A stretch of DNA of 63,866 bases, the filler included, from Reclinomonas americana ATCC 50394 (lineage: Eukaryota): the NCBI GenBank assembly GCA_048213135.1. It is 10 parts of 10 records of this genome, joined end to end, with 100 filler letters (N's around TTAATTAATTAA, not from the genome) between each part and the next. Parts side by side here need not be neighbours in the genome. Positions count along the whole stretch, not along the records: positions 1 to 20,189 come from AFZH01022038.1; positions 20,290 to 26,375 come from AFZH01022039.1; positions 26,476 to 29,413 come from AFZH01022040.1; positions 29,514 to 35,606 come from AFZH01022042.1; positions 35,707 to 42,593 come from AFZH01022044.1; 5 more parts are not named here. The stretch is one strand, 5' to 3'. Below are positions 37-42,423 of the stretch, piece by piece. Below the pieces are notes generated by a model. It was not told where the DNA came from and ran no database searches. It saw only the letters and a list, made by a program, of their open reading frames with translations. The position numbers were made by a program, and so were the translations under genes. How positions within the stretch are numbered: the first letter of the stretch is position 1; each line of letters opens with the position of its first letter.

Positions 37-3000
37 CGAAAGCAGATTGAGCAGCAGGCGCAGCAGAGCTTCTTCGAGTCGCTGCCGATGGATGTGCTGG
101 TGCATCTGTTGCAGTTCTTGCCACGCAAGGAGATCTTCTCGTCGATTGGCATGGTGTGCAAGCATGTGCGACAGGCGGTGTTTGCGCGGCCGTTTTGGTG
201 CGTGCTACTGAGTGTGGCACCTGTCTGTATGCGCGCTCACTGGCATGTGCATTTGCAGGCAGTCTGTGGAGTGCTCGCTTGTGGTCGGAGTGACGACGAT
301 TCGATGGGGATGGCTGCATCGGCGTCGCCTCACGCGCAAGATCGGCGAGTTTGTCAAGTCGTTGCACTTGTCGGTGCAGTGGCCGTCGCGCGTCGATCAG
401 TGCCCGTGCGATCGCGTGATGCGCGTCATCAACGAGGTGCAGAGTTCTCCTTTTGTCGCTGCGTTCCCACGGGCTGACTCACGCTTGCACTGCGTGGATG
501 CACAGACGCTGCCGAACATCACCGAGTTGCACCTGGAGTGTTCACCCGACACCTTCTCTCAGACCGAGTTCTACACGGACACCATGTTGCCGCTGCTGCT
601 GCGCGAAATCAGCCCTGTGAAGCTGCGACTGCTCAATGCGGTTTCGTTGGAGCGCTTCGGTCCGTTTCTGTCGGCGTTCCGTGCCGCGCCGTACGAGATC
701 GAGGTGTCGGTGGCGTACGAGAACCCCTCCTCCAACGCGGAACCATTACCATTACCGCGGCCCATGAAGGTCTGGTGTGTGTGTCACTCCTGGACAGGCG
801 TGTGTGTGTGCTCACACCGCTGCCACACAGATTCCGCGAAGCATTGCAGCACTAACCATAGAGACCGACACTGACTTGAGCAGATCGCTTCCGTTACCGC
901 TGCAGCTGCTTCGTCGTGGGCGGTCACTGAATGCGATTGATGTGCGTCTCAGTGCTTTGCGAGTCACGTGCTGTCACGTCGATTTCTCATCGTCTTTCAT
1001 CGCAGACGGTAGCGCCACCAGTGGAGCATCTTGCCAGTTTCCTAAAGGGACGCCATAAGATGCTTACCAGTGTGGCGTTGTCGGGATGGAAGACAACACC
1101 GTTGTCGGTGGTGCAGCCGCTGCACGGGTTGACGAGTTTGAATTTGCAAGACATTGATAGTGCGCCTTTTGCGTCAGCATTCATTCGTATTCTATATGTA
1201 TGCACTGTGCTCACATGTGTGTGTGTGTATGCGTGCAGCTAGCGAGTTTGATGTCGCATTTCCGCTTCTACAGCAGCTCAAGTTGGTTTTCTCGCGTGCC
1301 GCATCGCACGTGACAGTGTCGCTGGCGTGTCCACAAGTTGCGGCCGCGCCTTGCACTCGGTCTTGCGTTTCCCCTCTCTTTGTTGGTTGTTGACAGCGCG
1401 CCATCAGCTCGCTTCGTTGAAGGTGGTTGCACGCAGTTTAACACTGGAGTGTGTGGAGCCCGCCGCACGCTTCCAGCTCGAGATGCGAGTGCGACATATC
1501 CACGAGAGTTCGTTGGCGGGTGTGGCGGCACATCTGAGCCGCCTCGCTCTCACGTGTGGGCACGGCTCACTGGCGCTGGAGAGTCCAACCCTCGAATCGT
1601 TTACTATTGACTTTCTCGGCAAGTGCACGCTCGTGGATCTGAATTTGTTGCGTGGCCATGAGTGCCTTGCCACCGTGTTGTCGCATTCATGCTGACTTGC
1701 GTGTTGTGCCAGGCCGCGCGCTGAACGCGGCACCATGTATGTCAGGCTGGTGCCCCAGTCGGCGATGCTGATTGCGCCTGCACTTCGTCGGCTGGTACTG
1801 AAGGAGGAGGCTATTGTGCGTCATGCCGCTCGCGTGTCATGTTGGTGGCTGTCCCATCTGATGTGCGCTCGTGGCACAGGCTGCAAGCGAGTTGCTGATT
1901 TTGAGGTGTCGCCGAACCGCGGTGTCCATGGTCAGCAGCACATCGACGCCGCGAGTGACGCCACTCCTGCTGGCCGCCAACTCGTGTGTCCACACTCGAC
2001 AGCTGCAGCGTGTTTTAGTGGTTTGTTTCGTGCGTGCTGCGATTTCTTGTGCACGATGCAGAGTCATGATCGTAGAAAGCGAAAGCAGATCTCTCCGCAA
2101 GCTGACCTTGAGGTAGACGAACTGAAGCATTTGCGGGTGCCATTAGCCGTCACCGGCTACCCGCCGTTGCCGACCGACGCAAAAGACTGGTCGCGATGGC
2201 TGCTCGGCGTTCTGCCGTCGGTTGCCAGATCGCTGCAAGTGAGTTCTGCGTGCTTCATGTATGCAACGATGCCACAGCTCACTAACCCAAGCACTCCAGG
2301 ACCTCTGCGTGCAGCAGTCCGCGGACAACATTGTCGGGATGCTCAGCAGTCACTGCGTGTTTCAGGCATTGACCGAGCTCGAATGTGAGTTCTGATTGTG
2401 ACGAATGCTCATCGATTTCTTTGTATGTGTAAGAGAGATCTCTCACCTGGCAAACGCAGTGGCGCTGCCGGCCGAGGAGCCAGAGATGGATCTGCGACGC
2501 TGGGCGCCACAATGTCGCACGGTGAAACTGCGCACTCACAGTGTGCGGCGACTGCTGTCCGATGTTGTCACCAGCGTCACGTTTGTTGCCATGAAAGAGG
2601 CGCAGGAGACGCACATCGTGTGCCCGGCGTTGGAGACGGTGGGTGTGCTCAATGTCATGAAAGAGAGCAGAAAGAGGAAGTGGTTGTTAATCAAGCTTAT
2701 GTGTGCATTGCTTCGCAGCTTACGGTGGTGCAGTCGGAGTTTGACTTTACGCTGGACCCGTGTCCGCTCGACTCGCTGATGTTTGAGGACTCGTCGTCGC
2801 GCTTCAAGATCGCCAATCCCGTCAGCGATCTCATCGTCAACGGCAGTTGTCGTTCATTGGTGCCACTTGGCGCGTTTCCACTTGATGTGGCCACGTTCTG
2901 CGAAGTGCAGACGAGTACGCTGTACGCAGTACTGAACGCTCTGCGCCCGACCTCATCGATTGAGGTACTGGAGTGCCAGCTAGATGAACAACTGACAGTG

Positions 3001-3870
3001 CTTGATCACGGTGCCATTGCACCGATGCACTTTACCAACTGTGTCGTGTTCGCTTTTCCGGTGCGTTGCATGTATGGAGGAGAGAAAAGATGAACAGACT
3101 CGGACTGACTTGACAAGCTGTTGCAGGATGTGCCAACGTCTCTGACATTCGTCAGCTGTCACTTCCGTGTGCCTCCGCCGCGCACCGACTGTGAGATCAC
3201 GATTCGCTCATCAGTGTCGTGGAGAACGTGCTACTTCAACGAGAACATCGACATTTTCGTGGAGCAGGATGATGAGACTCAGGCGCCACTGGCAGTCGAG
3301 TTTCACCATTGTTCCTTTGCTGTCGATGGTCGGTACCGCCTGACTGTGTGTCCAGGCCCGCTCCCAGTTGCGTGTTACTTGCTTGGCAGCTCCACAAATG
3401 CCCGAGCCGGCTCGCTCACCACTCAACAGGTGTCGGTTGTCGGATTCCCGTTCGCGGTGCAAGTGGGATCGACCACCGGCACCGCACGCGAAGCGCAGAG
3501 AGCGTCAGGTGCATCTGCAGACTCCGCCACGAGTTTGGTGTTGCATACGCAGGAGGAACAGGTAAAATCGGTCGCGCGTAAACGTGGGACTGGCAACGAC
3601 CGCAAAGTGGCGAACGATGCCTATGACCATGCTGTTGCCGATGACTATGACGACGACGATGACGACGAAGAAGAAGAAGAGGATGGAAAGGACGGCACCG
3701 ATGAAGACAATGAGGTGCAGGTGATGGACGATGATAATTCCAATGATGATGTGGACGGTGATGATGATGATGATGAAGATGATGATGGTGACGGAGGAGA
3801 GGTGTATGAGGCCAGCCAATTAATACCGTGCGTGGTGAGCCAGCAGCTGTTCCCCCTGGCGCGGAAATAG
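37..3870 (+). CDS. F-box protein with LRR-like region and acidic C-terminus (multi-exon, 5' partial)
   Basis: F-box motif FFESLPMDVLVHLLQFLPRKEIFSSIGMVCKHVRQAVFARPFW. Downstream LxxLxL-type segments include LPNITELHL and LHGLTSLNL. About 13 short GT-AG introns, e.g. 198-258 and 1647-1712. Ends in a D/E-rich tail and TAG at 3870. Confidence 0.75.
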
Positions 3871-3881
3871 GTAAATAGCAA

Positions 3882-8020: not shown

Positions 8021-8438
8021 GGTGGCGGCAATCTATACAAGACCGAATCACGCAACATTAGCAATTGGCATGAGCAGCGAACAGTACGGGTGCCACCGAC
8101 CTCAGTGATCACTGCATGCAGTGCTGCATAGATGCACTCGACTTGTGCGGTATCCGCAAGAGACTGTACAGGAGAAGAGAGAAGGAGAGAGCAGTGTGAG
8201 CAGGAACAAAAAAGCACACAGGCGCTGCGGATGCGAACTGACCGCCGATAACACTGTGCTCTCGTCGGCGACGGCAGCGCTCCACTGTTGAACACCAGCA
8301 CGCGGCAGTAGCCACTGAGTATCTTCACTGACTTTGCGGATGCGCGACACGTGTGCACCACACCAGGCATCGGCAACTGCATACGCTCCTGTGCAGATTG
8401 AAGTGTTGGCGAGGGAAGAGGAAATCACGCGGAAACCA

Positions 8439-10170
8439 TCAACGGAAACTTGCAACGTCGCCACCATAGTGTGCCAGTCGTTGAGGAGCAAAAGTAAAGC
8501 CAAACGCATCGTCGAACAAACGAAGCACTTCTTCGATTTGTAGCCGCCAGCGCTCGAGCCGCTCCTTGTCACGTGTAATCTCGGCATCCAGTTGCTCACC
8601 ACGCTGCACGAGTTGGCGACACGATGCTGCCCGACGCTGACCCAGTTCACGAACAGCAGCGGTGAGTCGCTGACGTGGCCCGCCGGAGCTGCCCTCGCCA
8701 CTGTCTTCGCCGTTCAGTGACACCTCTCGATCGAGTAGTCGTCGCGAATCGTCTGCACTCGCCGCCGCCTCGTTCGCCATCTCCAGGAGTTCCGACACCG
8801 CCGGCGCAGCCAAGCTGGCGCGGTTACGCAACGGTGCTTGGTTCAACTGTGACGACAGGAGCACGTCGGTAATCGATGCACATCGACGCAGGAGCACCAC
8901 ACAGAGACAGCTACGCAACATGTCCGTCAGCGTGCAAGTACATGATCAAGTCACAGGCCTTCATCATGCAAGCTGCACGCTGCCGGCTCTGCATCCACAC
9001 GTTGATGTCGCGCACCAGCTGTGAAGTTTGCTCGTCGCCCGCCAGACGGCGGAAGCACTCCACCTCCGAGCGTCGGTCGTCTAGTCGAGGTACTGGCGGC
9101 GGTTGCGGTCGATGCGGAACCGCGTGGACGGTCATGATGCGGTCAAACTGTGTGCACAGCAACATGTGCATCGCATGCGACGACAACGAGCTCACACAGT
9201 GCGCACACACCACTCGTACCTCTCGCACGAACACGCTGGTCGCCTCCTCGTCACGCAGCACGATGCGAATGTCGGAGAGAGTGGACGTTGCCGGCAAACG
9301 TGCGATGAAAGCGGCCACCGTTCGCAGCATGACCGTGGCCGCAGAAGAGCGTGATAACTCTGTGCCACACACGCACACATCGGCACGGAAGGCATACAAG
9401 CAACAGTGAGAGTGTGGAGCGACGCACTGGCAAATCCAGTTCCGATGGCAGGAAATGCGATCGAGCCGCAGCTGTTGCGATCGGCCAGGTCGAGGCAGCG
9501 CGCTACACAAACGCCCAACACTGCCTCCGTGCGGTGAATGTCGCCGTACTCGCCGTCGGCGTCCGAACACGGACCCACTGCCGAGCGACGACACGACGTG
9601 AGTACCACTAATTATCTTCGACACGCAGAGAGAGTACTGTATGCAACTGGCATGAATGACGAAGCGGATGCCGCATCGAGTGGCCAGTGTTCCACCGCCG
9701 AGAGCGATCAGTGCCTGTACACACAGACACGTGGCGACAGTGATGCACACGTGCATCTGACAACACAACGACGACAACGAACGACGACGCACCGCTCCCG
9801 GCTGCAGCTGCTTCTGGCCCGTCTCTTTCAGCACCCTGCGCATCGTGGCCTTGGCATTGTCGACGAGCTCCGTGCCACCGGCTTCTGCCAACGCCGAGGA
9901 AACAGTGGCCTGCCTCCCTCTCACGAAGCGCAGATTTGCATTGGTGGGGTTCACAACGACGTCCACTGCATGCTGCAGCAGGTCACACTGCAAAATCTGC
10001 TCAACCAGTCAGCCAGGCAGCGAAGGGTTGCGTCAGCGTACAACGACCGGCACCTGCAGGCGGCGGCCACTCCACGATACGAAGCAGCGATGCACGTCAA
10101 GACCGGGACCTTCGCCGACTTCGACACAATGGCCGTGAAGTTGCCACTCAGCCTCGTCATCGTCGTCCAT
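8439..10170 (-). CDS. Macrodomain protein with C-terminal coiled coil
   Basis: ILQCDLLQHAVDVVVNPTNANL, FVIHA and SIAFPAIGTG are macrodomain hallmarks. Several short introns. The start could lie further upstream. Confidence 0.8.
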
Positions 10171-10337: not shown

Positions 10338-12383
10338 ATGCGACGCACCGTCAGCGGCTCAGCCGTGCTGGAGGAGTACGCCATGACTGTTGCGTGCACG
10401 CACGCACACAAGCGCGCGCACGCTGTGTTTCACATCTCACTGAGTGATTCTCGTGCAGCCAGCCGCGCTCATGACCTTCTCCTTCGCGGCGGCCGTCGAG
10501 GCTGGCGACGGCGACGATGGCGAGTGCCTGCGGGAGGCAGGGCCTTCGGCAGCAGCCGATGGACTGGAACCGTGGGCGGCGCACTTGTTGGAACAACTCG
10601 TGGGAGTGGCGATTGCGCGCGATGCCGACGAAGAATCAACAGTGGTGATTGCTGATGGATCCATGCTGTGGCCTGAGCCGGGCACGTTGGTCGCCGGTGA
10701 GTGAGAGAGGGAGAGAGAGGAGGAGGAGGAGAGAACTGAGTGAGAGATTGATTCCGTGTTGTTCGTCTGCAGAGATTCAGCTGGAGCCCGGTCCGCATCT
10801 GTCGTCGCTCCTGCTGATGGAACCGCTGGTGTTTCGGCAGCGGCGGAATCGGCACTGTGGGTACTATGCACTGCACAACTGCTTGTGTTTCATGGAGGAG
10901 GGTGCGTGCGTATGTGTGTGTGTGTGCTGGACGCATTGGCATATAGATCCGGACCGACCTCACTCATCCCACACCAACGCAGGCATGTTTGTCGACGCCA
11001 GCGGGGAACCGCACTTTGGGCAGTTGCGCGACTGCATTCGGCACTATGGGGATCGTGCACCGTGGCGCATGCGAGGCGAGTTCTGGCGTGAATTCAATCG
11101 CATCCACGGTGAGCTGCGTGCCGAGTGTCAACGACAGGGCGACCACGGGAACCCGGTGCGTGCGTGCCATACATCTGATCAGTGCAGGGAAACACCGCTC
11201 TCATGCAATGTGAGCATAGTGGCGCGTGCAAGACGTGGAGGACGGCACAATGGAGCGGCCGTATGTGGATTTCCTCGTCGACGAGCGGGGCGACTCGGCC
11301 GTTCGTGCACTCACCGGTCTCCATCCGTCCCTGCGACACTGCATCCAAGCTTTCTCGGAGTTCTCGCCATTCAGCCTCAAGGTGCGTGACATGCTTGCGA
11401 CGAGAGACAACTTGGTGGTCGGCGTGCTTACAGAGGGGGGTCAGCGTGGTGATGTCGAGCTGTTCAGCTTGGATCGCCTGTACACGGCACTGCGTGAGCT
11501 GCACGACCGCCCCACTGGTCGCGTCGCTCTCATGATTGGCGTGTATGCACACTGGGTGGCCGTCATTATCAACAAGCCGGCGCACAACAGCGTGGAAATC
11601 CTCCTTTGCGACTCTTTCAATCCGCACGTCGTTCGTGCCACCGATGCCGAAATTGTGCAGCATGCCATAAATCGGGTGCGTGGCGCCCTTTCTCTCCCTT
11701 TCCTCCCTCCCTCTTTCGTTGTCTTCTCAATCGCACGCACAGCGTCGGCTTCTCAATTGGGACGACGCAACCTTTGAGGAGGCGGTGGAGTCGATGAAGT
11801 GCGCACGCGCGGTGGTGTGGCTGGTGGTGGAGTGCGTGCGCGATCCGGAGAATGTGCGACGCGTGTACTGTCGCTACCTGGTGTACGGCTATCTGGAGCG
11901 TTTCTATCGTGTGGTCCTCGGCATGGCCGACCTCGATATGGTGACGCACTTTGTTTGTCTCGCTCGCGAGAGCGCTGCATGCGCCATGTGTCTCATTGTT
12001 GTGTTGTTTGTGGGGGAGAGCAGGACACGGTCGATCTGGACGAGTTGGAGAGCGCTGTGTGGTCGGAGCATGGCTTCTCGGTGCGCGCACTGCGCGAGTG
12101 GATCAACGATTACGACCCACCGCAGCAAGTATCCACACTGATCTTTGGTCGCATTCGTACGGTGCGCCACTTCTGCACATCTCTTTCGGTCTCTCCCTCT
12201 CTCACATCGCAGGTGTGCTGTGAGCAGGTCGGCACCAAGTACCTGGTGGAGCCGACTCGTGGCTTCCTGCTGCGCTGGGCTCGTCGCATCACTGACGAGG
12301 CAGCGTCGTTTGTCGATCAGGACTGCAAGAAGCTGCTGGCACTGACGGCGGAGATTACGAAAATGTTCGCCGACCCACCGTAG
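10338..12383 (+). CDS. Papain-fold cysteine peptidase, Josephin-like
   Basis: Candidate catalytic residues: Cys in FRQRRNRHCGYYALHN (about 10856), His in AHWVAVII (about 11550), Asp in LLCDSFN (about 11610). Multi-exon; first donor is GTTGCG at 10388; TAG at 12383. Confidence 0.6.
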
Positions 12384-12409: not shown

Positions 12410-15400
12410 TCAGTCTCCGCTACCACCGACGGTGCGGGCTGCGGTACTACGCGCCAGACGGGCACGCAGCACTGGCTCGTTGGCCACCAGACACAGCTGC
12501 CAGTCGGGTATGCTGTGCAACGACAGCGTGCCGCCGCGAATGCGCTCGATCAAGAGTGAAGCCACGCGAATCCACTTCCGCAGCTTCTCTCGATGTCGTT
12601 CCGCGTAGAATCCACTGCACAGTCGCTGTCGTGGCATATCGCGTACGCGCAGGAGCGTCTTGTCAATGAGCCATCCGGGACGCACTGCGAGGCGATATGT
12701 GGATGAGCGGCGACGAATGACGGCATCAGTTGTGGCATTTGCAGCGCAACTCTCTGTCAACAGTGCAAGCAGCAGCTGGTACGGGGATTCGGTCGCGCCT
12801 TTTTGTTTTCGTCCACTGCCTCCGCCGGCGGCTGCTGCTGCTGATGTCGACGACACCGTGTCCGACTGCATCGCCAACAGTGAGTAACTCGTCGTCCACT
12901 CGGGCGCAACGCAGCACACGCAACACTGTCGCCATCGCTGGAGGCGCTCCGTCCATCGACAGTCGGTGCTTGTGCCTCCTGCACCTCGCGCTGCGGAAGG
13001 AATGCGCGTGAATCCTCCACACCCGCATCGTCCACAAATGACTGGCAGTCGGCGTTCTTCATCAGCGTCGCCAGTTGCAGAGCCACAGATGGCCTATGTG
13101 GGATGAGTGATATGAGCACGCGCGAATCGTGAGAACATGTGACGCTGCGTGCCAACCCACCTCCGATATCGCGACTCGTTCAACCGCACTCGCACGCAGA
13201 TCTTGTCAAACAGGCGGTATGTGAACCGCTTTCCGTTGTCGAATGCAAGTGTCTGCGACACAGACGGACGTGAGACTCAAATACGTGGACGCTCCCCAAA
13301 TAACTGTGTATAGACTGACCCAGGAGGTCGCGTTCTCTGGATCGAATTCAACAGTCGGCGTGGTGCGCGGCTGCCGCGCCGGCAAATGCGTGTCGTCCGG
13401 CAGGTTGCCGTCGCGATCAAGAACCCTCAATGGAGCGCGCACGCGCGATCTGCGAACACGGCAGTGACGCATGTGTCAGTAGCTGGCAGTGCATCGTCAG
13501 CAGGGAATGATAACGCACTTGGGAAGGAATGTGGAGAATGTGCCCTGCGACCCAATGCCGGTGATAATCGCCAGCGTGGAAATCTCCTTGCCTGCATAGT
13601 ACAGTGCTCTGCATTGCGAACAAGAGAAATACAATTGGATGAGATATCGGCTGAGAGGGAAAAGAAAATGAAACACCGTGAAAGCACGCAACTTGAACCA
13701 GTCGGAGGCGTCGCGTTGAATGTTCTTGGAAGCGCGGTTCATAATGTTGATGTGTTGCGCGTGAGACGACACCAGTCGAGTGTCGCGACACAACGGCGAC
13801 AGCTACACATGATAAGTCAGCGCGTAAAAGGAGCCGACAAGAAGTGCAAAATATATGCGATCCTGCACCTCAGCCTCGCTGCGGGCCTTGTCAACAGCCA
13901 TGGACGCCAGCAGCTGGCGGTGAACAATGACATCGGCGTACCGACGAATCGGTGACCTACACACGTTCGTGCGTTGTCAGTCAGTCAGCCTGTCATGCAT
14001 CTCTCTCCCTCTCGTGCCCAACGCAACGTGAAATGCGTGTAAAAGTTGAGGGCGAGCGCATAATGGTAGAACTCTGACGGCGCACAAGTGCCAGACGAAA
14101 TATACCTGCGATCGCACCGTGAACAGACCACACAGACAGACAACAGGCTTGTAGCTGACAGGCGACGCACTCGGCCTCGTTCATCGCGCGCGCAGCCACC
14201 GACTTGAGCAGGAAGTGAATGTAGGGATCGGATTCGTCATGAACCTTGGACAGGCTCTCGGCCAGCGCCCGACTCGAGTGTGTGTGAATGTGGAACCTGG
14301 CGGAGGGAGCGGTGCTGTTCAGCAACGAGCACCAGAACGGTGTCTCGTATAAGCACGTACCCGCGAGATTTGGCAGTGGCCACAAGCGTGGCAAAGTTCG
14401 ACTCATCGGGACTCGCCAGTCGACGCAACAGCGCGCTGGCAGGGAAATAGTCGTACAAACGGGCCGCCACCACCTATCCCGAGCGCCACACACTCGATGA
14501 GCAGAACAGCTGGGTGGCAGGTGACGAAACAAACGCAACATGATTGGCAAAAATCATCCACTCGGCCACCGTCTCATGCATCTCCACCTCGGTTTCGATT
14601 TCTGCACGACAAAGATGTGAGAGAGAGAAGAGAGATAGAGGGACAGCCACAAGACAGACACAATGACGTGCCAGCGTTGGTGACGTGAGTGCCTTCGACC
14701 TTGAACTTGATCTCTTGCAGACTCTCCAGCTCAATGGCTCCGCGGTCGACGCGATCTGCCCTCATGCGTCGTCCAATGTTGAACAGGTGCTCGATCGCCG
14801 TCTTCACTTTGTTGTACTTGGCCACGTCGGCGACGAACTCCGATAGCACATTGGTGCGACCGGTGGCCGAGTACACACTTGGCACGTACGGTTTGCCGGT
14901 GGCCTCCACCGCTGCGCCATCGAAAATGAGATGCAATGAAACAGGGAGAGAGGGAGCGGAGCGAACGCACCAGCCGGTGTCTTGCAGAAATCTTTGTGCG
15001 AACGCGAAAACACCACTGTGTGTGCCTCTTCGTAGGCCAGCGTGTAGCTGCAAGCATGCGCAACACCTTTTCAGCAACGGTGAAGCAGGTGGGTCAGTCA
15101 GCATGAGTGCACTCGGTGACAAAAACCTGTTGCGAAGGACCGTTCGTGCATATTGTGTGGACAGCAACTTGCGTCCGCTGGGGTCGTACTCGCAGAACAC
15201 ACTGACCGCAAAGCGGTCGCAGCCCGAGTGCAAACTGCACAGACGTAATCATGCCAATCACTGGAAATGTTAGCAGCACAACAACAACAACGACAACAAC
15301 AACAAGTCGGACGGCGTGCGGCCACATATCTGATGAGAGCACTCCTGGCAACATGTCGAGTCGTCGATCGATGAGGTACACCGTGGTACCGCGCTGCGAC

Positions 15401-20189: not shown

Positions 20190-20289
20190 NNNNNNNNNNN
20201 NNNNNNNNNNNNNNNNNNNNNNNNNNNNNNNNNTTAATTAATTAANNNNNNNNNNNNNNNNNNNNNNNNNNNNNNNNNNNNNNNNNNNN
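20190..20289. other. Artificial gap linker; also at 26376, 29414, 35607, 42594, 54144, 55565, 61544 and 62766
   Basis: An identical 100-nt N-run/TTAATTAATTAA/N-run six-frame-stop spacer occurs nine times. Confidence 0.98.
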
Positions 20290-26375: not shown

Positions 26376-26499
26376 NNNNNNNNNNNNNNNNNNNNNNNNN
26401 NNNNNNNNNNNNNNNNNNNTTAATTAATTAANNNNNNNNNNNNNNNNNNNNNNNNNNNNNNNNNNNNNNNNNNNNTGTGTGTGTGTGCTTGTCCACAGC

Positions 26500-29413: not shown

Positions 29414-29513
29414 NNNNNNNNNNNNNNNNNNNNNNNNNNNNNNNNNNNNNNNNNNNNTTAATTAATTAANNNNNNNNNNNNNNNNNNNNNNNNNNNNNNN
29501 NNNNNNNNNNNNN

Positions 29514-29855: not shown

Positions 29856-31122
29856 ATGGCGGAGGCTTATCCGATTGATGTCGCGAAGGAGCGCGAGCGA
29901 TGCGAAGGTTCCGAGAGAAAGAAAGAAGAAAATGAGAAAAAACACATATGTTGCTCACGACACATAAACATCACAGAGTTTGTGCAGACACTGATTGGTG
30001 CCGATGATTGGAAGGACAAGGGGTGAGTGCGCGTGGGAGGAGAGGGAGAGAGAGAAGGAAGAGAAAGGTTGCTCATGTGAGCGCGCACAGTCTCAAGGAC
30101 GGTGTGCGTCTGTTTCAACGAAAGCACGATTCGGGCATTACGCAGCACATGGGAGTGGTGAGTGGCCATACTCAGCCTCTCTCACCTTCACTTCACACAC
30201 TCACACACACACACTCTCTCTCTCTCTTTGTGTGCTTTCCTCAGTTGCACTTCCCGGAGCACATTGACGCGGAGCGAGTCATCATGTACACATCGGATCC
30301 GATGTTTGAGACGAAGAGCGCGTGGAACGACGATCTGGCGCAGGCGGAGCTGCTGGGCGAGTTGAAGCACCCGGAGCATGGCATTTCGCAAATCATTTAT
30401 CAGCGTGTCAAGGGCGCCATGGGTAAGTGTGTTTCTTTTCTCCCGCCAATGCACTTGCTGTTCCTGTTCTTCTTCTTCTCTATTGCGCTTCTCCTCGCAT
30501 TCACCACTCACGTATGTATAAATGTTGGCCGGCGGGGCATCTTTGTCTACTCCACTCAGGCGGCATCATCTCTGCGCGCGAATTCCTCATGACCCAGGTA
30601 ATTATGCCTTTTTCCGCGCCCTCATTCCACGACAGATGCGGTTGTTGACACGCCCGCGTGTGCAGTTGGGCAACCGTCACGAAGGCGATCGCTGGTTCAC
30701 ACATGCACGCTCGCTCTCCGATGAGGAGTAGTTGCGTTTGCAATTTGCAGGGGCTTGCCGTCAGAGCTGTGCATTACTTGCATGCTGATCGACCGGCGTG
30801 CAGCACGTACCCGCAACACGGCGATGCGGTGCGAGGTCATTTGGAGTCCGGTGGTCTGGTGGTGGAGCCGCACGCGGATGGTGGTCTTGTCGCTCGCTAC
30901 TGTTGCGTGTTCATTTTTCACTTGTTTCCCCTTCTCTCCAACACGCACACCCGCTGATCGGGTGGTGTGTTGTGCGCAGCGCTGTGCACGGATCCGAGGG
31001 GTCGTATCTTCCAGTGGATGGTCGACAAGGCCATGCCGTCGCAAATCACCGATTTCATCAACCGTGTGCGAAACACGCTGCCGCCGGATAACTCCGCTGC
31101 CAGCGGCAGTGGCTCTCAGTAA
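29856..31122 (+). CDS. START (lipid-transfer) domain protein
   Basis: Spliced product contains DDWKDKG|LKDGVRLF, KSAWNDD, GGIISAREF, VRGHLESGGLVVEP and TDPRGRIFQWMVDKAM; TAA at 31122. Confidence 0.8.
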
Positions 31123-33407: not shown

Positions 33408-33410
33408 TCA

Positions 33411-35606
33411 ATGAAGGGCAACAAGGCGATTTCATTTTCACCTTTCTCCCTCTCTGCGTGCTGCATGTCTCTGAGCGCACGATCGCGATGGTTGACAGTG
33501 GCAACGATCATTGTTGCTGTTGTCATCACGATCGTGGTTGTTGTGCGCACTCGGCATGGTGACAACAGCAGCAGTGACAGCATGAGTGATGGCGAGGTGG
33601 CGCGTGCGGGAATCCAGCATGCGTGGACGCTCACGTGGCAGCGACGCGACCTGGATGCGCTGTGGAGAAACGCCACACGGCGATTGTTGCATGAAGAGCA
33701 GGGAGAAAACGATGATGAGCAGCCGTGGAGTGCGAGTGATGAGCAGTGGGCGTGGTGTGTGGGCGAGCTGGAGGCGGCAGTGTCGGAGGAGAGTCGACGC
33801 AGTGCGCAGGAGGTGTCGTGATGCGCGTCGCGTGAGTGGGAGAGAGTGGGAGAGAGTGATCAATCGAAAATGTGTGGGCAGTGGCAAGAGCAGCAGCGGA
33901 GCCTGGAACGCGTGTCGATGCATGGCAACTCGTACGTGGTGTCGTGTGAGGATGTGCGAGGAGCGGAGCGCACCGGCTATCGTGTCTATGGAGACATGGC
34001 GGTGTCGCCCATGGCGCGCGCCGAGTACATGTTTTCGCGATGCTCCGATCACCCAGCCAAGGCCTCGGTGTGGCGATGGCCGCCACCGCGGTCGGTGAGG
34101 CCTGTGGAGCAGTGTCCGCTCCTCGCGTCGCAGTGGCAGCTGTGGCACGACATGGAGGATGCGAGGCGCAACGTTGTGAATGACTGGCTTGTTGTGATGA
34201 TGAAAGCTGCTGCTCACCCGACGCAGTCGTTTCCCAAGGTCCACCGCGCTCTCCTGCGCGGGTACATCGATCGGCCCAACTTTATCACGCAGGAGTTGTG
34301 TGAGACCGGCTGCGCTGCGCCGCTGTCGTCCTCGTTTCGCCACTCGAGTTACTGGGGTCACACGGTGAGCATCGTTGTCATCGCTCTCTCTCACTCTCTC
34401 ATTGGAAGCACCGACAACTGTGCCACAGGTGGTGTTGAGTCTGAATGCCACCGCCCTCGACGCCGACATTGTGGTCACCATGTCCGACACGATTGCCGTG
34501 CTGCCACGTGATTCGTCGCGTGAGGCCGCCGTCTTTGTGCAGCAATCGACGTACAAGGAGCACGAGATGACCAGTGTGCACAAGATGGTGTGCCGCTCGC
34601 GGGATGCCTTGCCGCGCTCCAGTGTCGCCAATGCCATCTCTGTCAGCAACCCGTTCCACAACGTCTACTGGCACATGCTGTTGGAGCTGGTGCCGCGTGT
34701 GGTCGCCGCCCTGCCACTCCTGGCCGCCCACCCAACCCTAAAGCTGCACGGCGTGCCGCATGACACGGCTGTGTGGCTGCGTCCGCTGCTGGGCATCGGT
34801 GGGTGTTCATGTGCATGCATGCTTGCTTGCTTGCTTGCGTCAGTGGCTCACCGTGTGCCGACACGCAGCGGATAGCGCGACAGCGGATCCGCAGTTCACA
34901 CGTGTTCGTGAGGTTCTGTACGTACCCATTGTCAGTGCTGGCTACTGGCAGCGTCGCAACGAGTACCTCGGCGAGCCTACTACCTGGCAGATTGCTGCCG
35001 TGCGGTGAGTGTAGCAATGGAGGAGTGCTCCTTGTTCTGATGCACGCAACTCACCGCTGGCGTCACAGCTGGCTGTTCATGCGCGCAGCTGCGGCGCAGG
35101 TGCCGTCACGAGTCGCTCCGCCCACATTCCCTCGCTGTCCGACGTAGTTGCGGGAGACGATGCGTGTGGAGCTCGCCGTTCTGACTGCTCACTCGCTCTC
35201 TCCACGCCGCAGTGCCGACAACTTTCAGCGCTACGTGGTGTTCACCACGCGCTTCTCGCGAGTCGGAGCCAACTCACAAGAAATGTACGAAGCTCTGCGC
35301 CTGCACGCGTTGTCAATCGGAGCTGCACTGGTTCCGTTGTCGGGCGCACAGTTGCGTGGACTTTTAGCAGACGAAAAACGTCGGCACATCGTCTCATGTT
35401 TGTTTGCCGCAGCACCGAGGTGTTTATGCAGTGGCGCATGGTGTACTGCGAGGCGGCCGTGTTTGTCGGTGAGCACGGCTCGAATCTGGCCAACATTGCC
35501 CTGTTGCACCCCACGGCCGTCGTTGTCGAATTCATCACCCACGTCAGTCCAAACTACAGTAATTATTACCAGTTTCGTGGAGGGACGCACACACACACAC
35601 ACACAC
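33411..35606 (+). CDS. Type II membrane glycosyltransferase, family 61 (DUF563)-like, 3' partial
   Basis: N-terminal transmembrane segment (WLTVATIIVAVVITIVVVV), NVYWHMLLELVPR and AAVFVGEHGSNLANIALL...VVVEF. An alternative start is at 33465. Confidence 0.75.
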
Positions 35607-35706
35607 NNNNNNNNNNNNNNNNNNNNNNNNNNNNNNNNNNNNNNNNNNNNTTAATTAATTAANNNNNNNNNNNNNNNNNNNNNNNNNNNNNNNNNNNNNN
35701 NNNNNN

Positions 35707-38700
35707 CGCGACATTTGTGACAAATTTGACTTGCCATTCGTGCCGCCACCCACTGCACCGCCGCGCAAGAAGCGCACGGTTAGTGGACACTCGTTTGCGA
35801 CCTACCTCGACGCGACCGCTGGAGCTCACGTGTATTCGCTTGTGTGCAGGCCGAGGCGGCAGGCAACGCCGATGGTGGTGCGTCGTCAAGCACGACCACG
35901 GCCGCCGCATCCGCCGACGGAGCGGAGGGCGGAGCAGAGCCGGATCAGAAGCGTCGAAAAGTGGAGCGTTGCGTGAGAAGATGGGAAGGAGAACCTTTGC
36001 GCGCCGCTCTATCTCACACGCTGTCGGCGCAGCGGAAAAGGCGAAACCCAAGTACCCGATGGCGGACCATCTGCTGGAGCACGAGGGGGAGCACGCGGAC
36101 AGCAACTGGCCGCAACCCGTGCAAGAGTTCATTGTGGCCGATCATGCAGTCAGCGACATGCTCATGGTGTGGGACTTTTGTCAGACATTCGGGTGCGTGC
36201 TGGTGATGCTGCTCGCTTTCTGTGCCAAGTAGGCGAGTCACTCACTCACTCATTGTCGGTCCGACGTGAACAGCGACCCGATCAAGTTGTCGCCGTTCAG
36301 CCTGAACATGTTTGAGGAGGTGCTGTCGCTGCCGCCGGTCAACCGTCCCGAGAATCCCGCCGTGTACTCGTGTTTCGTGAACATACGGCGCGCCAGTGTT
36401 GTTTGTTCTTCATGGTCATGGCTCACACATCGGCGCAGATATCTCCGACGACGACGTGTCGGCTGCTCGCACGGCTGGCACGGAGAGCGCAGCAGCGGAT
36501 TCTGCACCCGCTGCTAATGGTGGTGGTGGTAGCAGTGGTCACGATGAAGCTGCACAGGCGACTCGCAAGGCGGATGCCAGAATGCGCGCACGCCGACAGA
36601 AGCTGAAGGAGCGCAAGTTGCGTGCACCTCGACAAGGAGGTGGTCCATTGACCTCTGCTTGACAACGTGTATGTGTTGCAGGGCGGCGGAGGCTCGCAAG
36701 GCAGCCGCACAGGCCAAGAAGAAGGCACAGGAAGCGAGTCGACCGAAGGTTGAGTGATGTGAATCGTGGGTGTCTTGAATTGTTGATGCTGACTGCACGC
36801 GGTAAACAACAGCGGAGCGGACGCAGCAGCAAGAGCCAGCAAGACGATGTGCGACGCAGCAGTCGTCAACGAGGACAGCGAACGCGCTACACCGAAGTGT
36901 CGTCGGAATCGGAGGAGCAGTCATTCCAGTACGATGGTGCGACGAGAGATGCATGTGAGACAATGATATGTTGGCTGTCGGTCTCACGTTGTTGCTGTTG
37001 TTGTTGCGCACGATGCAGAGGACTCCAGCGAGGATGAATTCCAGCCGGAGAAGCCACCGCGCGAGGCAATTCGCGACTTTCGTTATGAACAGGCGTCGTC
37101 TGGTGAATCGAGTGATCTGTTTAGCGACGGCGACGAGGAAGATGAAGTGATGGAGGATGTGGAGGACGAAGAGTTGCGAACCTCTACATTACCATCCATG
37201 TGCCTTTGTTAGCGTCTCATCTGTCGATCAGTGCTTTCCCGGTGGTGTTCAAGGAGAAGACACTGTCGGTCGACGTACGGCGCAGTTCACGCACTGCCAC
37301 TCGAGCATCCGCTAAAGCAGTGGCCGCGGCGGCGGCAAATAGCGAAAAGTTTGTTCCGCGGTACTCGACACGTCGTCGTACGGCGCTCGAGGACGATGAT
37401 TCGGGAAGTGCGAGTGCCGATGCCGACACGGACGGGATGCAAGTCGACGGAGACGATGCCAGCGACGATGAGGAGAAGGATGAGGACCTGGAGGACGAAG
37501 ACGACGGCGGTGACGTGGACATGGACGAGGATGACGACGACCTCGGCAGTGATTTCGACAACGATTCAGATGTAGTTGCGTGTGCCGACGGCTTGTTCTT
37601 GTGTGTGTGTGTGTGTGTGTGTGCGGTGCATGCCTTTGACTTCTGATGCAGGCTGTGAGTCTCGCCGATGGTTTCGGTGATGGCGATACGCACTCTCTGC
37701 TGGTGCAGATGCACATGCGACTACTGCACGTGATTATCCAGGACGAGCAGTTCACGGTGCAGCCGCTCAAGTCGGAGCACAGCCAGCAACCGCACCGATG
37801 GCAGCAGCACTTGTACAAGCTGTTGAAGATCATTTGCCGTCAGAGCCCGGAGACCGCGGTGCAGGTGACTGTTGGGGTGATGATATCGGCAGGGTGTCGC
37901 GCCAGATTTCCCTCAACGATTATCATGCACAGCTGCGAACCGCAATGGGTGTGTTGCGCTTGCGACGAGTTGCGTCGGATGATTGCCCTTCTCCTCTCCC
38001 CGTCTCTGGCGCGGTGGTTGACGTGGTGCGTGTCGTTGTGCAGTTCAAGGGCTACCCATCGCTGACGGTCCGCGAGCGACTCGACATTCTCGCTGTGCTG
38101 TGTCATCGCGGTCTGCAGGCCAAGTTCTTGCGGTGAGTATCCGCGTGAAGTGGCGGCCGTGCATGCTGCTCACCGCGTATCACAGCGAACAAGTGGATGC
38201 CAACATGAACGACATTAACGAGCTGCACAAGGAAAAGTGGATGCGCGACCGCGACGATGCCCGCAACAAGCGTGAGCAGCTGGAGGCGCTGCGCAAAGAA
38301 AAGGGTGCGTGTGTTCGTGTGTGTTTGAGACGGGCGGGGATGGCACGTGGCGCTCACCTCTCGACAGAGGAAATCATCAAGCTGCTCGACAAGCGAGGGA
38401 ACAAGGGCGCTGCGGCTGCTTCGGCCGCGAAGACCGACGACGTGGCAGTGGACATGGACGAGGAGATTGATGTCGACGCGCTGTTGCGTCCAGCTCCTTT
38501 GTGTGCTCCTTTCCGCAGCTGATAGGTTGCTCACGCTGTGTCGATGATGTAGAGCCGCTGCCGGCGTCAGCCGCAGTGAGATCCGACGCCGCCAGAAAGA
38601 ACTGGAGCGACGGAAGCAGGAGAGGGAGGCCTCAGAGTCGCGGGAAGAAAATCGACTGGCCAAGATCGAGGCGGCCGAGCGCAAGGCTGTTGCCGACACG

Positions 38701-39569
38701 GAAAAGGAGTTGCTGCGGAGAGTTGCGTGCTGATTCTAGAGTGTGCATCATCATCTTTCATCGACTCAAAAATCTTCGTCGTCGTCGCAGGAGCAAGAGT
38801 TTGAGAAGCTGGTCACGGACTTTGCAGTGCGCACTGTTCCGCTGGGCGCCGATCGACACAACCGCCAGTACTACCTGTTCACGGCCAGTGAGCACGAGCA
38901 GCGGCTGTGGGTGGAGGACACCAAGGTGCAGCACGAGCTGTCGAACGAGAAGGGTCGGATCGAAGAGCTGCCGCTGGTGGTGGTGCGTCACGCCGCCGGC
39001 AGGCTAACGCAGCAGCAGCTCTTGCAGCACCAGCACCAGGAGAAGCGCGAGCAGGAACAGCAGCAGCAACAGCAGCAGCAGGGAGAACAAGCGGGCGATG
39101 GCGGCGACGACATGCTGGCCGGTGTGTCTGTTGTGGCGTCGCAGGAGGCCATTGCGGCTGCTACGGCGGCTGCGACGGCCGCACACGAGGCACGCAACTC
39201 GGCTCCGAATCCCTGGTCGTACTACACGAACGAGACCGACGTGGAGCGTCTCATCGCCTTCCTCGACGAACGCGGTGTGCAGGAGCGCAAGCTGAAAGCC
39301 AGTCTGAAGAAATACGAGACGCGTATTGTGGCGGTACGTGTTTACTGTGCGAAAAGGGAGAGCAAGGGAGAGAGCACGGTGTCTCACGATCGTCGACTGC
39401 GCAGGGACTGCGACAACGCCGGGAGGAGATCGAGAACGGCAGCTCGCCGCGATCCACACGTCGAGCGGCGGCAGGCGGCAGCGGCAGTGATGGCGGTCCA
39501 CTGTACATCAATCAGGCAGTGCAGGTGGCTGTGGCGGGCCGAACACGGCGAGCCACGCGGCGACGATGA
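35707..39569 (+). CDS. DDT-WHIM1-WSD chromatin-remodelling subunit (BAZ1/ACF1-like), 5' partial
   Basis: DDT: DMLMVWDFCQTFG|DPIKLSPFSLNMFEEVL. WHIM1: GYPSLTVRERLDILAVLC. WSD: VRTVPLGADRHNRQYYLF...WSYYTNETDVERLIAFLDERGVQERKL. Confidence 0.85.
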
Positions 39570-39667
39570 GGGCTTCTACGTTAGAGAGGGGTGAGGGTGA
39601 AGGAGGGAAATTGGGTAAAACTGTCCTGCGTCCGCGATGAAGGCACGCGTTGGTGTTTCCGAGACGA

Positions 39668-40641
39668 ATGGCAGTCAGACCCGTCACCTCACCGCACAGC
39701 CGGCCACTCACCGACGCAGTTGAGTGCCTCGACGCTCCTTCGTCTTCCCACCGCACTCTCTCCCTCACACACACACACACACACACACACTAACAGAGGA
39801 TCGTTGATCGAGCCTTCTTCCGCACACCGCGCGACGCTCCGATCTGGTGGAAGGCCGACTCGCGCAAAGACGAGCCACTGCTGGAGGTGTGTGTGTGTGT
39901 GCTTTTGCGCGAACACACAGGCGCCCGCGCAAACCACTGACTCGACGCGTTGGTGGCTTTTCGTTCGTCACACACAGCACACACTGCGGGAGAGTGAATT
40001 CAGTGTGCCGCGACCCGAGGTAGTGCAGGAGGTGCCACTACGGTCGGACTATGTACGCGTGCGACGCACACCAGCGGCGACCTTTGGCACCGCGCCTCGT
40101 GATGTGGCCAAGCCACTCACATTGCCGCCGCTGAATCTGTCGTCGGTTAACTCGTCGCGCGCCACCAGTGCGCGACACTCTGCTCGCTCCGCGACTGGGA
40201 GGGGCAGTGAGACAGCAGCAGGAGCAGCAAGCTCAAAGGGCGGGCTGACGGCGAGGGAACAGTTCTACAGTTGTATATCGGCACGAACCGCACGTGGAGA
40301 AGCCCGCAGCTGGCAGTTTGGTGCGTGTGTGTGTTTCTCCGTGATCCGCAAGTGTCGAGGCGTTGTTGTTGTTGTTGTTGGAGCTCATCAGCACGAGTGC
40401 ATGGCGTGCAGGGTACGCAACATCATCGTTTGGGCAGTCGGAGCTGCGTGAGAAATCGTCATCGGTGCGGAACCCAGGTCCTGGTTCCTAGTTGCGTGAG
40501 GGCAGCGGAAGGCGGTGAGACAGGGGGGCAGTGACGCTGACTGCGATGGTGATGTGTAGCGAACCACGGAATCCAACGCAGGAGTTGTCGAAGAAGCGCG
40601 CCGTCTCGTTCCAACGCGCCAGGCGCTTCCCCGTCAAGTGA
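39668..40641 (+). CDS. SHIPPO/PGP-repeat (ODF3-like) flagellar protein
   Basis: Splicing out 40491-40559 gives NPGPGSY|EP. Also contains PAATFGTAPR and a C-terminal AVSFQRARRF. Confidence 0.55.
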
Positions 40642-41007
40642 TCCTCGCCCCTCGCAGCACAAGCGTAATCAATGAATCTCGTCGATATGTGTATAGCGGG
40701 GGGCGCCAAGCGTGGACAACAGCATGCACAGCGTTGCGCAGCGGTCCTATTTGCGTTTTCCGGGCCCGCGACGACCTCAGTGGACCTACAATCGCAATGT
40801 CTCCGCTTCGCAAATGCATGGAAACAGGCGGGTCGAAAATGGTCGCAAAGTGCCCCGCACTGCGCCGTCACCGGCTGTGCGGGCCCTTTTTTGTGGACCG
40901 AGTGTCCGATTGTGGACCGCGCTGCTCGATTTGCACATTTCGAACTGATTGAGGAGAGAAGACAAGGAGCAAAAGTTGACCCTTGAAGAGAACGCATCCG
41001 AGTTTGC

Positions 41008-42423
41008 ATGTGGCAAGGCGTAGTGTTTGCTCAGGTGGCGGTGGTGGACGACGACGATGATCGGTGCACCACCTCGTGCGGTGTGCGTCTGCGGGCTGAA
41101 GACTGTGCGAGCCTTGTTGCGTTGCGACGGGCCCTCTCGGCGGCGTGCCCCTGGGACCGACTGCGTGACGAGTGGCCACTGGAGATTGCTGTTGCGTGCA
41201 CCGTTTGACGAGTGTTCTCTCTCCTTCACGTCGTGCGCTGACTTGACTACAACAGTGTGGACTGGTCGGCAGCGAGTTTGTGGTGATCGGAGACGAGGAG
41301 CAGTGGAGGAGACACTTTGTGGGCATCATGGATGGACGTACAAGGCCCGCCTTTCGTGTGCAGAAGAAGCAAGGTACTGTGCATGTGGATTGGAGATCAC
41401 ATGCACGACGAGGGCCTCTTTTCTCATCTCTTCATCACAGTCGCCGCTGCGCAAAAGCGACCAGTGCTGCGATCGCATCGTGCGGCCCACCTCGGTTTCC
41501 TGTCGCTGTCGACGCAGCTGTCCAAGTTGATCGAGGGAGTGTCGGCGGTCGGAACGGTGACCGCGAATGACGCCGAGAGCACCGCTTTTGATGCCGAGGA
41601 CGACGATGATGAGGAGGACGAAGACAGCGGTCTGGACGACGACGAGGAGGAGGAGGTGCCGCAGGTGACTGGTGCCACTTTGAAGGTGGTACCGGTCCCT
41701 CCACTCGTCATGGTTCCGCCACTGGTCCGCTCACGACGAGAGCGCGAGGTGCCGGTGCAGCAGCAGCATGCGCAGCAGCAGCAGCGAGGTCACCACCATC
41801 ACACGCTGACCGACGTGGACTGCGCGAGTTCCACGTACAGCTCGACCCTGCATCGTCGGCGCCGACCACGCGACGAGCGGCACTCACGATCGGCCCACGC
41901 CACACCACGCACCGACCGCGACTTGTATGCCTTTGCACCGCGCAGTGCACGCGGCGATTTCGGCGGCCCGCTGTCGGCACGCTCGTCGGTGGCGCCCTCC
42001 TGGACGCCCGCCGTCACCACGGCCACCGCATCGTCGTGCGCACAGTCCCTGCTGTATCGCGCCGCCATGGATCACAGCATGCAAGACAACCGCGAGGCAG
42101 TGGTGCGGAACGACCACGGCTGTGCACACGGACATGTGCAGCATCAGCGGCGCCACTCGTCGGTCAGCTGCGCCCTGGCCAACCACAGCGGGCACAGCTT
42201 CGGCGCCGGCAGCAGCTGCGGTGGCCGTGGTGGCTATCTCAACAATTTTATTGGCGACGACGACGAGGATCGCTCGCTGGTGCACACGGCCAGCATGAAT
42301 TTTGACGACGCCTTTGAGCATCTGCTGGACCTGGGCTTCGAGCCGACACTGGCGCACGTCTGTCTGAGTAAGGCTGACTGCGATGTGCCTCGTGCCCTGG
42401 CCCTCTTGCGCTCGTGCAGATGA
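41008..42423 (+). CDS. PB1-like plus C-terminal UBA protein (p62/NBR1-like architecture)
   Basis: C-terminal UBA FDDAFEHLLDLGFEPTLAHVCLSKADCDVPRALALL. N-terminal beta-grasp-like region with EFVVIGDEEQW. Acidic linker. Confidence 0.6.

Follow-up and report, generated by a model that had tools for sequence, protein, structure and literature searches.

Comparative evidence for an abundant second class of 5' splice site, GTTGCGT, in short introns of Reclinomonas americana

Introduction

Can a spliceosome read, beside its ordinary donor, a second one in which the same core lies one base further into the intron? The question is raised by a stretch of 63,866 nucleotides (nt) from Reclinomonas americana ATCC 50394 (assembly GCA_048213135.1), referred to here as the window, which consists of ten contigs joined end to end, has 51-60% GC across its length and is eukaryotic nuclear DNA rich in genes and short introns. 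An initial annotation made from the sequence alone had observed that, besides introns opening with GTGCGT or GTGAGT, many frame-restoring introns open with GTTGCG or GTTGAG, and had proposed an abundant second class of 5' splice site on the strength of 21 such positions. That proposal was borne out by shuffled sequences, by gene models blind to the donor and by three introns fixed by homology. Together these analyses show GTTGCGT(G), at the level of genomic sequence, to be a genuine and abundant predicted class of 5' splice site in ordinary short GT-AG introns. How the class is recognised is a more tentative matter, on which several explanations are weighed below.

Three GTTGCGT introns are fixed by homology

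The decisive junctions lie in two unrelated genes (coordinates refer to the window; kb, kilobases):

About 12.4-17.9 kb (-), Dis3/Rrp44-type RNB exoribonuclease, recognised by Pfam
23.9-26.3 kb (23891-26345) (-), FAD/amine-oxidase protein, a PYROXD2 homologue, recognised by Pfam and homologues

Dis3 homologues came from a sensitive search seeded with one RNB exon. A Dis3 profile hidden Markov model (HMM) built from 17 full-length homologues was run over all minus-strand open reading frames (ORFs), and a PYROXD2 HMM was built from 104 homologues; at each junction every pairing of a GT, GC or AT with an AG or AC was then ranked by HMM alone. The Dis3 HMM matched a series of exon pieces whose profile coordinates follow on from one another. 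Three introns with GTTGCGT donors were proven by homology (tier A):

13957..14027 (-), GTTGCGT...GTAG, 71 nt, phase 2, Dis3/Rrp44
14474..14539 (-), GTTGCGT...ATAG, 66 nt, phase 0, Dis3/Rrp44
25514..25574 (-), GTTGCGT...GCAG, 61 nt, phase 0, PYROXD2 homologue with putative GFA domain (see below)

For the intron beginning at 14027 (-), the flanking exons are contiguous both in the Pfam RNB profile (278-305 and 306-322) and in the Dis3 HMM (755-783 and 784-812), and GTTGCGT gave the best donor-blind junction (86.8 vs 79.4 bits). Splicing there rebuilds YTHFT/SPIRRY, with the T codon split 2+1, a motif that is unbroken in 15 of the 17 homologues. The intron beginning at 14539 (-) joins Dis3 HMM positions 655-678 to 679-722 through the best-scoring junction (58.1 vs 52.8 bits) and preserves an AN-xx-VA spacing present in 12 of the 17. 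At 25574 (-), GTTGCGT was again the best junction under the 104-sequence HMM (187.0 vs 181.1 bits); moreover, in tblastn searches with the 14 best homologues (55-61% identity), ten gave high-scoring segment pairs (HSPs) that break off at 25578 and continue from 25513, with exactly one codon between them, and of the 56 homologues that matched the pattern, 55 show the spacing of HG, seven residues and P across this junction. The runner-up at all three junctions was a GC donor 3 nt downstream, which would add one residue to the protein, so that homology places the exon cut directly before the GT of GTTGCGT at 14027, 14539 and 25574 (-).

GTTGCGT accounts for three of the 11 junctions resolved by homology. 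The remaining eight use GTGCGT (15525, 14170), GTACGT (14360), GTGAGC, GTGAGG, GTGAGA, GTGTGC and GTTCGT (25053), a variety which indicates that the main donor class is fairly loose. Two of them, the first a reference for the main class, are:

15456..15525 (-), main-class intron of Dis3, GTGCGT...GCAG, 70 nt; Dis3 HMM 461-505 and 507-549, best junction at 163.6 bits
24990..25053 (-), intron of the PYROXD2 homologue, GTTCGT...GCAG, 64 nt, with T at +3 and no extra base; proven by homology

The latter was the best junction at its site (166.9 vs 158.9 bits), with HSPs contiguous at residues 535 and 536. A GTTCGG donor was likewise the top-scoring junction at 17152-17236 (-) in Dis3. Because these GTTCGT and GTTCGG donors carry no extra base, U at +3 is tolerated in the normal register too. 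A further Dis3 intron, 13803-13868 (-) with GTGCAG...GTAG, is probable: the profile is contiguous from 812 to 813, the bases at +5 and +6 are non-consensus, and the GT donor ranked only fourth, after GC and AT alternatives.

Tests blind to the motif recover the same donor

GTTGCG also emerged where the donor sequence was given no weight. In a Viterbi gene model that scored codons, charged every GT the same cost and defined the acceptor as YAG with a loose branch-like word, GTTGCG was the commonest donor hexamer (nine of 62 introns, against five for GTGCGT and three for GTGAGT), even though only 1.2% of the 5956 GT sites are GTTGCG (binomial p=7e-8). As the initial annotation had pointed out, the bases at +4 to +7 after GTT should look unconstrained if GTTGCG were no donor class; the constraint is far above background, with GTTGCG forming nine of the 16 GTT-starting donors of this model against 73 of 1096 GTT sites (p=2e-7).

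A second test looked for GT sites that, when spliced to a YAG 40-160 nt further on, link two frames which the unspliced reading leaves apart, both of them open, scored positively and at least 30 codons long. Applied to 5954 GT sites in bases 1-43500, it was satisfied by 18 of 73 GTTGCG sites against 9.1% of all sites (p=7e-5), the best result of all hexamers; GTGAGT reached 11/56 and GTGCGT 13/83. A looser test, asking for a branch-like word plus AG within 130 nt, did not separate the hexamers.

GTTGCG-type sites were then admitted as a second donor class to a two-class gene model in which 3' features were rewarded equally in both classes. When the same sites were penalised as odd donors, nine of the 25 GTTG[AC]G introns were kept, ten were given another donor and six were dropped; the donors that the penalised model put in place of 25574 and 14539 conflict with the homology evidence.

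The word GTTGCGT is over-represented

The two strands of the window together carry 44 copies of GTTGCGT against 15.31 ± 3.76 expected from 100 dinucleotide shuffles, none of which reached 44; GTGCGT, for comparison, occurs 115 times against 76.4 ± 8.0. The great majority of the copies (41 of 44) fall within bases 1-43500, where a second-order Markov model predicts 10.0 and where GTTGCGT is the top-ranked 7-mer once the linker, homopolymers and micro-, di- and trinucleotide repeats are set aside. Nineteen of these 41 copies are modelled donors, 13 lie in exons in the sense direction, five outside the models and four antisense, and the excess over chance is about as large as the number of modelled donors. 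The word by itself is not enough to make a donor, since the exonic copy at 14423-14429 (-) encodes a conserved Leu-Leu-Arg-Arg of the RNB domain. In metagenome loci carrying homologues (at most 66% identity), GTTGCGT was not enriched, with 0-3 copies per locus.

The second class makes up about a quarter of modelled introns and keeps the core of the main class

In bases 1-43500 the two-class model contains 103 introns, of which 37 have GT[AG]NGT donors (GTGTGT left out), 25 have GTTG[AC]G donors and 41 have others, fractions that rest on our own gene models and on an "other" class that includes mispredictions. These counts support a share of about 24%, or about a quarter, for the GTTG[AC]G class; the description of it as a major class thus held, by 25/103 modelled introns and 3/11 homology-resolved junctions.

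With a slash marking the cut, the consensus of the main class is G/GTGCGTG and that of the second class W/GTTGCGTG. The core is kept and displaced by one base, as had been proposed, positions +4 to +8 of the second class (GCGTG) being positions +3 to +7 of the main class (GCGTG). The proposed G(C/A)G form of this core has to be corrected to GCG; the A variant, GTTGAG, is rare (two of 25). In the main class (n=45, whole window) -1 is G in 26 donors, +3 is G in 40, +4 is A in 17 and C in 23, and +7 is G in 22 and T in 15. In the second class (n=25) -1 is A in ten, T in ten, G in three and C in two; +5 is C in 23 and A in two; +7 is T in 21, which the model scoring mildly favoured; and +8 is G in 17. 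The two classes differ most plainly in the last exon base, which is G in 23 of 37 main-class and three of 25 second-class introns (Fisher p=8e-5), and in the strictness of the C, found at +5 in 23/25 of the second class and at +4 in 21/37 of the main class (p=0.004).

In other respects the introns are alike. Median length is 65 nt in the second class and 70 nt in the main class, and GC content is 56.4% and 55.4%. All 25 second-class introns end in CAG or TAG (CAG 20, TAG 5), as do 36 of 37 in the main class, and a CTSAY branch-like motif lies in the last 45 nt of 20/25 and 27/37 respectively, about 16-18 nt from the 3' end (second-class median 16 nt); both the branch-like motif and the YAG acceptor were rewarded by the gene model itself. 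GTT is preserved whichever of the three phases the intron has, and coding is therefore no explanation for it. With GT and AG ends, a protein restored on their removal and a branch-like motif near the YAG acceptor, the second-class introns agree with U2-type GT-AG introns. Measured against the U12-type donor and branch consensus motifs, an origin as U12-type introns was rejected: GTTGCGT is not the U12-type donor consensus, and the branch region has CTSAY as in the main class, not the U12-type box.

Individual sites

Candidate sites were graded as proven by homology (A, listed above), frame-restoring (B) or weak candidates (C). Nearly all of the 21 sites of the initial annotation (20 of 21) carry the stated hexamer exactly; the exception, placed at 10388, in fact starts at 10389. 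Three of the 21 are proven by homology, and a further 13 restore the frame and were picked by the two-class model; 1337 and 37575 are frame-restoring yet unchosen by the model, and 18625, 39719 and 40491 are weak. Sites beyond that list are 3367, 21606, 26617, 30731, 35351 and 36617 (+) and 8919, 12924, 13692 and 17524 (-). In the lists that follow, "up" and "down" are open codons on either side, "read-through" is the number of codons before a stop when unspliced, "two-class" and "donor-blind" name the model that chose the intron, and "kept" means kept despite the penalty.

Tier B:

1337..1407 (+), GTTGCGG candidate, 71 nt; 65 up, 95 down, read-through 18; unchosen by the model
1647..1712 (+), GTTGCGT, 66 nt, phase 2, F-box/LRR gene, whose model breaks without it; 131 up, 224 down, read-through 16; two-class
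8847..8919 (-), GTTGCGT, 73 nt, newly found; 363 up, 135 down; two-class
12866..12924 (-), GTTGCGT, 59 nt, newly found; two-class; kept
18257..18326 (+), GTTGAGT, 70 nt, WD40 gene; 210 up, 160 down, read-through 0; kept
23368..23428 (+), GTTGCGT, 61 nt; read-through 8; two-class
26617..26680 (+), GTTGCGT, 64 nt, newly found; different ORFs on each side, 61 and 126 codons; two-class
28568..28649 (+), GTTGCGT, 82 nt; two-class; kept
30731..30803 (+), GTTGCGT, 73 nt, newly found; two-class; kept
30902..30979 (+), GTTGCGT, 78 nt; 84 up, 46 down, read-through 18; two-class
35147..35212 (+), GTTGCGG, 66 nt, phase 2; 127 up, 131 down, read-through 0; two-class
35351..35412 (+), GTTGCGT, 62 nt, newly found; two-class
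35968..36032 (+), GTTGCGT, 65 nt, WHIM/WSD gene; frame-restoring; two-class
36617..36681 (+), GTTGCGT, 65 nt, newly found; donor-blind; kept
36749..36812 (+), GTTGAGT, 64 nt, on the weaker side of this tier; two-class
37173..37231 (+), GTTGCGA, 59 nt; 68 up, 137 down, read-through 13; donor-blind
37575..37651 (+), GTTGCGT, 77 nt; 143 up, 137 down, read-through 23
38483..38552 (+), GTTGCGT, 70 nt; donor-blind; kept
38722..38790 (+), GTTGCGT, 69 nt, shortly before the WSD-domain exon; read-through 3; donor-blind
41191..41255 (+), GTTGCGT, 65 nt; 68 up, 104 down, read-through 5

Tier C:

3367..3429 (+), GTTGCGT candidate, 63 nt, newly found; in frame and stop-free, could be exon
10389..10458 (+), GTTGCGT candidate, 70 nt; in the two-class model, with long read-through and poor coding scores
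13609..13692 (-), GTTGCGT candidate, 84 nt, phase 2, C-terminal part of Dis3; weak HMM continuity (813-846, then 843-873)
17460..17524 (-), GTTGCGC candidate, 65 nt, N-terminal part of Dis3; third-ranked junction, 31.7 bits
18625..18703 (+), GTTGCGT candidate, 79 nt; stops do not require it and it is absent from the model
21606..21648 (+), GTTGCGA candidate, 43 nt; two-class
39719..39725 (+), GTTGAGT donor-like site, without an assigned acceptor
40491..40559 (+), GTTGCGT candidate, 69 nt; weak flanks

At 18625 (+), the last ORF residue covered by the WD40 Pfam alignments falls between 116 and 133, mostly at 120-125, and residue 121 ends at base 18624. At 37575 (+) the model used the same acceptor and placed the donor 36 nt further downstream, at an in-frame GTGTGT (37611). 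Many introns contain (GT)n, (CA)n or poly-C tracts, for instance at 37597-37634, 39770-39795 and 28580-28595, and such repeat tracts create in-frame alternative GTGTGT donors that mislead gene models.

Gene content and contig joins

The other genes recognised by Pfam are:

1-3.9 kb (+), F-box protein (F-box/LRR gene)
17.9-20 kb (+), WD40 protein
31.3-32.8 kb (-), SIR2 protein
32.8 kb (+), DUF1168 protein
35.7-42.4 kb (+), WHIM/WSD protein

Pfam searches with the exon ORFs of the SIR2, DUF1168 and amine-oxidase genes yielded no further junction continuity, PDB sequence searches brought nothing of use, and no homologue was returned when a weakly conserved RNB exon served as the query. Identity to the Dis3 homologues, which come from mixed lineages, is only 28-43%. 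Among the PYROXD2 homologues the best reach 60%, the named example being the arcellinid testate amoeba Pyxidicula operculata; they carry PF04828 in precomputed annotation and align over the N-terminal part of the protein, where the window itself gives a weak Pfam match to the glutathione-dependent formaldehyde-activating (GFA) domain (E 0.013, 16 bits against a cut-off of 24.3 bits). The PYROXD2 homologue is thus probably fused to an N-terminal GFA domain.

Beyond 43.5 kb no GTTGCG donor was modelled, and two very long, almost intron-free ORFs dominate, at 48981-53315 (-) and 56948-60625 (-), of 1445 and 1226 amino acids. Their C-terminal halves consist of 9-14 near-consensus WD40 repeats, and the contigs that carry them are strongly skewed in GC (-0.2 to -0.4) and lack GTTGCG donors.

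The contigs are joined by nine spacers, each of 44 N, the 12-base word TTAATTAATTAA and another 44 N, a word that puts stops in all six frames:

20190-20289, 26376-26475, 29414-29513, 35607-35706, 42594-42693, 54144-54243, 55565-55664, 61544-61643 and 62766-62865, spacers

Because the window is made of joined contigs, genes on either side of a spacer need not adjoin in the genome. An Rfam search of the window returned no family at the gathering threshold and, at E<=1, chance-level matches with no small nuclear RNA (snRNA) among them; a weak match to MIR408 was discarded as an artefact, as it spans a contig spacer.

How might the displaced donor be recognised?

The initial annotation had suggested that the class may imply a variant U1 or U6 snRNA or an altered spliceosome, and that it would serve as a lineage marker. 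Pairing with U1 was modelled as nearest-neighbour duplexes between donor positions -3 to +9 and a U1 5' end. With the standard U1 5' end, written with U in place of pseudouridine, main-class donors averaged -6.75 kcal/mol and 34 of 37 paired in the canonical register. When U1 was given G at position 5, the variant proposed for Mastigamoeba, or made fully complementary to GUGCGU, second-class donors reached -5.6 to -7.5 kcal/mol, and with G at position 5 the +1-shifted register was adopted by 22 of 25 and a bulged one by three.

The mechanism we propose is that the GCGU(G) element, which follows GU directly in the main class, would be read by the same U1 small nuclear ribonucleoprotein (snRNP), and later by U6, although it lies one base further downstream. 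The register of U1 pairing would be shifted by +1, with the intron G at +1 filling the slot of the exon G at -1, while the cut would still be set at GU by U6 and U5. A less likely variant is that U at +3 is bulged out; the shift is favoured over the bulge because the preference for G at -1 is lost, which a bulged register would keep and which fits the shifted register since the intron G takes that slot; the duplex counts with G at U1 position 5 point the same way. With one pair lost, the remaining positions would all have to pair, which would yield a consensus stricter than that of the main class. Furthermore, the organism's U1 may have G opposite the C at +5, as the near-absolute C at that position suggests, and its 5' end may be complementary to GUGCGU. 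In sum, a real GTTGCGT class read by one U1 in a shifted register, with a 5' end probably adapted to C at +4 of the main class and with U6 and U5 fixing the cut, is an account whose chances we consider evenly balanced.

Several points weigh against this account, to which the reliance of the class fractions and of +7 T on our own models, given above, should be added: i) the U1 ends in the duplexes were assumed ones; ii) with the standard U1 end, second-class donors averaged a mere -1.79 kcal/mol, in scattered registers of which the +1-shifted one took 11 of 25; iii) a shift predicts that -1 of the second class should resemble -2 of the main class, and the observed counts are A10 T10 G3 C2 against A10 C13 G15 T7; iv) 20 of the 25 GTTG[AC]G donors follow an exon that ends in A or T and three follow a G, a bias that neither the shifted nor the bulged register predicts; v) C at +5 is no proof of an altered U1, because in Thecamonas and Mamiellales a preference for C at +4 goes together with a standard U1.

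Among the alternatives, the one that survives best is a pair of U1 snRNAs, the second a paralogue contiguously complementary to GUUGCGU, so that each class would have its own U1 in canonical register. Such a paralogue would account for the sharp consensus of the class (seven to eight fixed positions), for its very poor pairing with standard U1 and for a -1 preference unlike that of the main class, and it has a precedent in Entamoeba, for which the available text of Roy & Bowser 2022 (10.1101/2022.06.08.495308) describes a U1 co-evolved with a +3U donor. On the other side, the downstream core differs from that of the main class in nothing but the one-base offset, an identity which a single U1 explains economically and a second U1 would leave as a coincidence; and Thecamonas and Mamiellales, which prefer C at +4, are given a standard U1 only in the same text. 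We regard two U1 snRNAs as possible and rather unlikely.

Recognition might instead be largely independent of U1 pairing, with proteins (U1-C, Luc7-like, Prp8) or U6 and U5 directly selecting a GCGUG element that tolerates slippage by one base. In its favour are the weak pairing with standard U1 and the degeneracy of main-class donors, which include the homology-proven GTGAGA, GTGAGC, GTGAGG, GTGTGC and GTTCGT and probably GTGCAG; the high information at +4 to +8 of the second class, in contrast, resembles RNA-RNA pairing, and we consider this explanation improbable.

A reading of the sites as GC-AG introns that start at the GCG 3 nt downstream, with a conserved exonic GTT before them, is in frame with the GT reading, so that ORFs alone could not exclude it, and it came second at all three proven junctions. 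It fails on the proteins: the extra residue would fall inside YTHFT/SPIRRY, AN-xx-VA and the HG-to-P spacing, conserved as described above, it would exceed the single codon for which tblastn leaves room in 10 of 14 homologues, and its junctions score 5.3-7.4 bits lower, which makes it very hard to credit.

That GTTGCGT is no splice signal at all, and instead a word that arises from codons (Leu-Arg, xTG TTG CGT) or from the ends of a family of mobile "introner" elements, draws on the 13 of 41 copies in sense exons, including the one at 14429 (-) within Leu-Leu-Arg-Arg, and is next to impossible given 19 of 41 copies as modelled donors, an excess of about that size and three sites proven by homology. 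The introner family was rejected separately: an interior 9-mer is common to eight of 300 second-class pairs of introns against 38 of 666 main-class pairs, so the interiors are unrelated and the class is not a mobile intron family.

Implications

If the single-U1, shifted-register account is true, this spliceosome would be able to run two offset donor grammars side by side, one of them a fixed heptamer used by about one in four introns, and would offer a natural system for the uncoupling of U1 marking from the choice of cleavage site by U6 and U5. It would also bear on the co-evolution of snRNA and donor in intron-rich genomes, which in the accessible portion of 10.1101/2022.06.08.495308 is argued only for intron-poor ones. 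A stronger claim, that the major spliceosome here has two registers or two U1s, with either a dedicated U1 variant or obligatory +1-shifted pairing for about a quarter of introns, is one to which we lend limited credence; were it true, the intron-rich genome of this eukaryote would hold an intron class that is recognisable on its own and might be regulated on its own. Genes with GTTGCGT introns are mis-annotated by gene finders whose training donors are GTRNGT, as when ten of the 25 were replaced and six lost under the penalty.

Comparison with known systems

The nearest counterparts of these donors are the mammalian shifted-register sites (Roca & Krainer 2009, as cited in PMC9311317 and PMC4856993). 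As far as the citing texts extend, they too are cut at the GU with the U1-complementary stretch one base further in, carry U at +3 and do not rely on an exon G at -1; unlike the present class, they are rare, and their register was proven by suppressor U1, whereas here the donors form about 24% of introns with a fixed heptamer and the register is inferred. The bulge +2/+3 and bulge +3 registers (Roca et al. 2012; PMC4856993) likewise place one extra nucleotide between GU and the U1-pairing stretch, although here the loss of G at -1 favours a shift instead. In the text available of Tan et al. 2016 (PMC4856993), of 201,541 human 5' splice sites 54 are predicted to use bulge +2/+3 and 36 bulge +3, all noncanonical registers together making up 2.1%; experiments in human cells have established the shifted and +2/+3-bulge registers, and at atypical mammalian sites U1 pairs apart from the cut, which is fixed by U6 and U5.

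Among protists, the comparison rests on the accessible part of Roy & Bowser 2022 (10.1101/2022.06.08.495308). In Entamoeba nearly every donor is GUUUGU, matched by a co-evolved U1; this lineage thus shares with the window a +3U donor, GUUUGU(U), as a lineage-wide signal and the idea of U1 co-evolution; Entamoeba is intron-poor with one nearly universal donor, whereas here an intron-rich genome has two coexisting classes. The closest named relative of the PYROXD2 protein is, like Entamoeba, an amoebozoan. The main class (GTGCGT, C at +4) is of the same kind as the GYGCGY or GUGCG(U/C) donors of Mamiellales, Thecamonas and Mastigamoeba: in Thecamonas and Mamiellales the preferred C at +4 is combined with a standard U1, while Mastigamoeba has a GUGCGC donor with an ACGUAC U1, for which G opposite +4 was proposed. 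The part of that study available to us reports no second class displaced by one base in these three lineages.

U12-type introns offer a further parallel, as a second sharply conserved donor class beside a main one. A literature search, with thin coverage of subscription journals, found no description of a GUUGCGU donor class or of a coexisting class displaced by one base. Set beside these systems, the GTTGCGT sites are best described as noncanonical-register U2-type donors, distinguished by their frequency and their sharp consensus.

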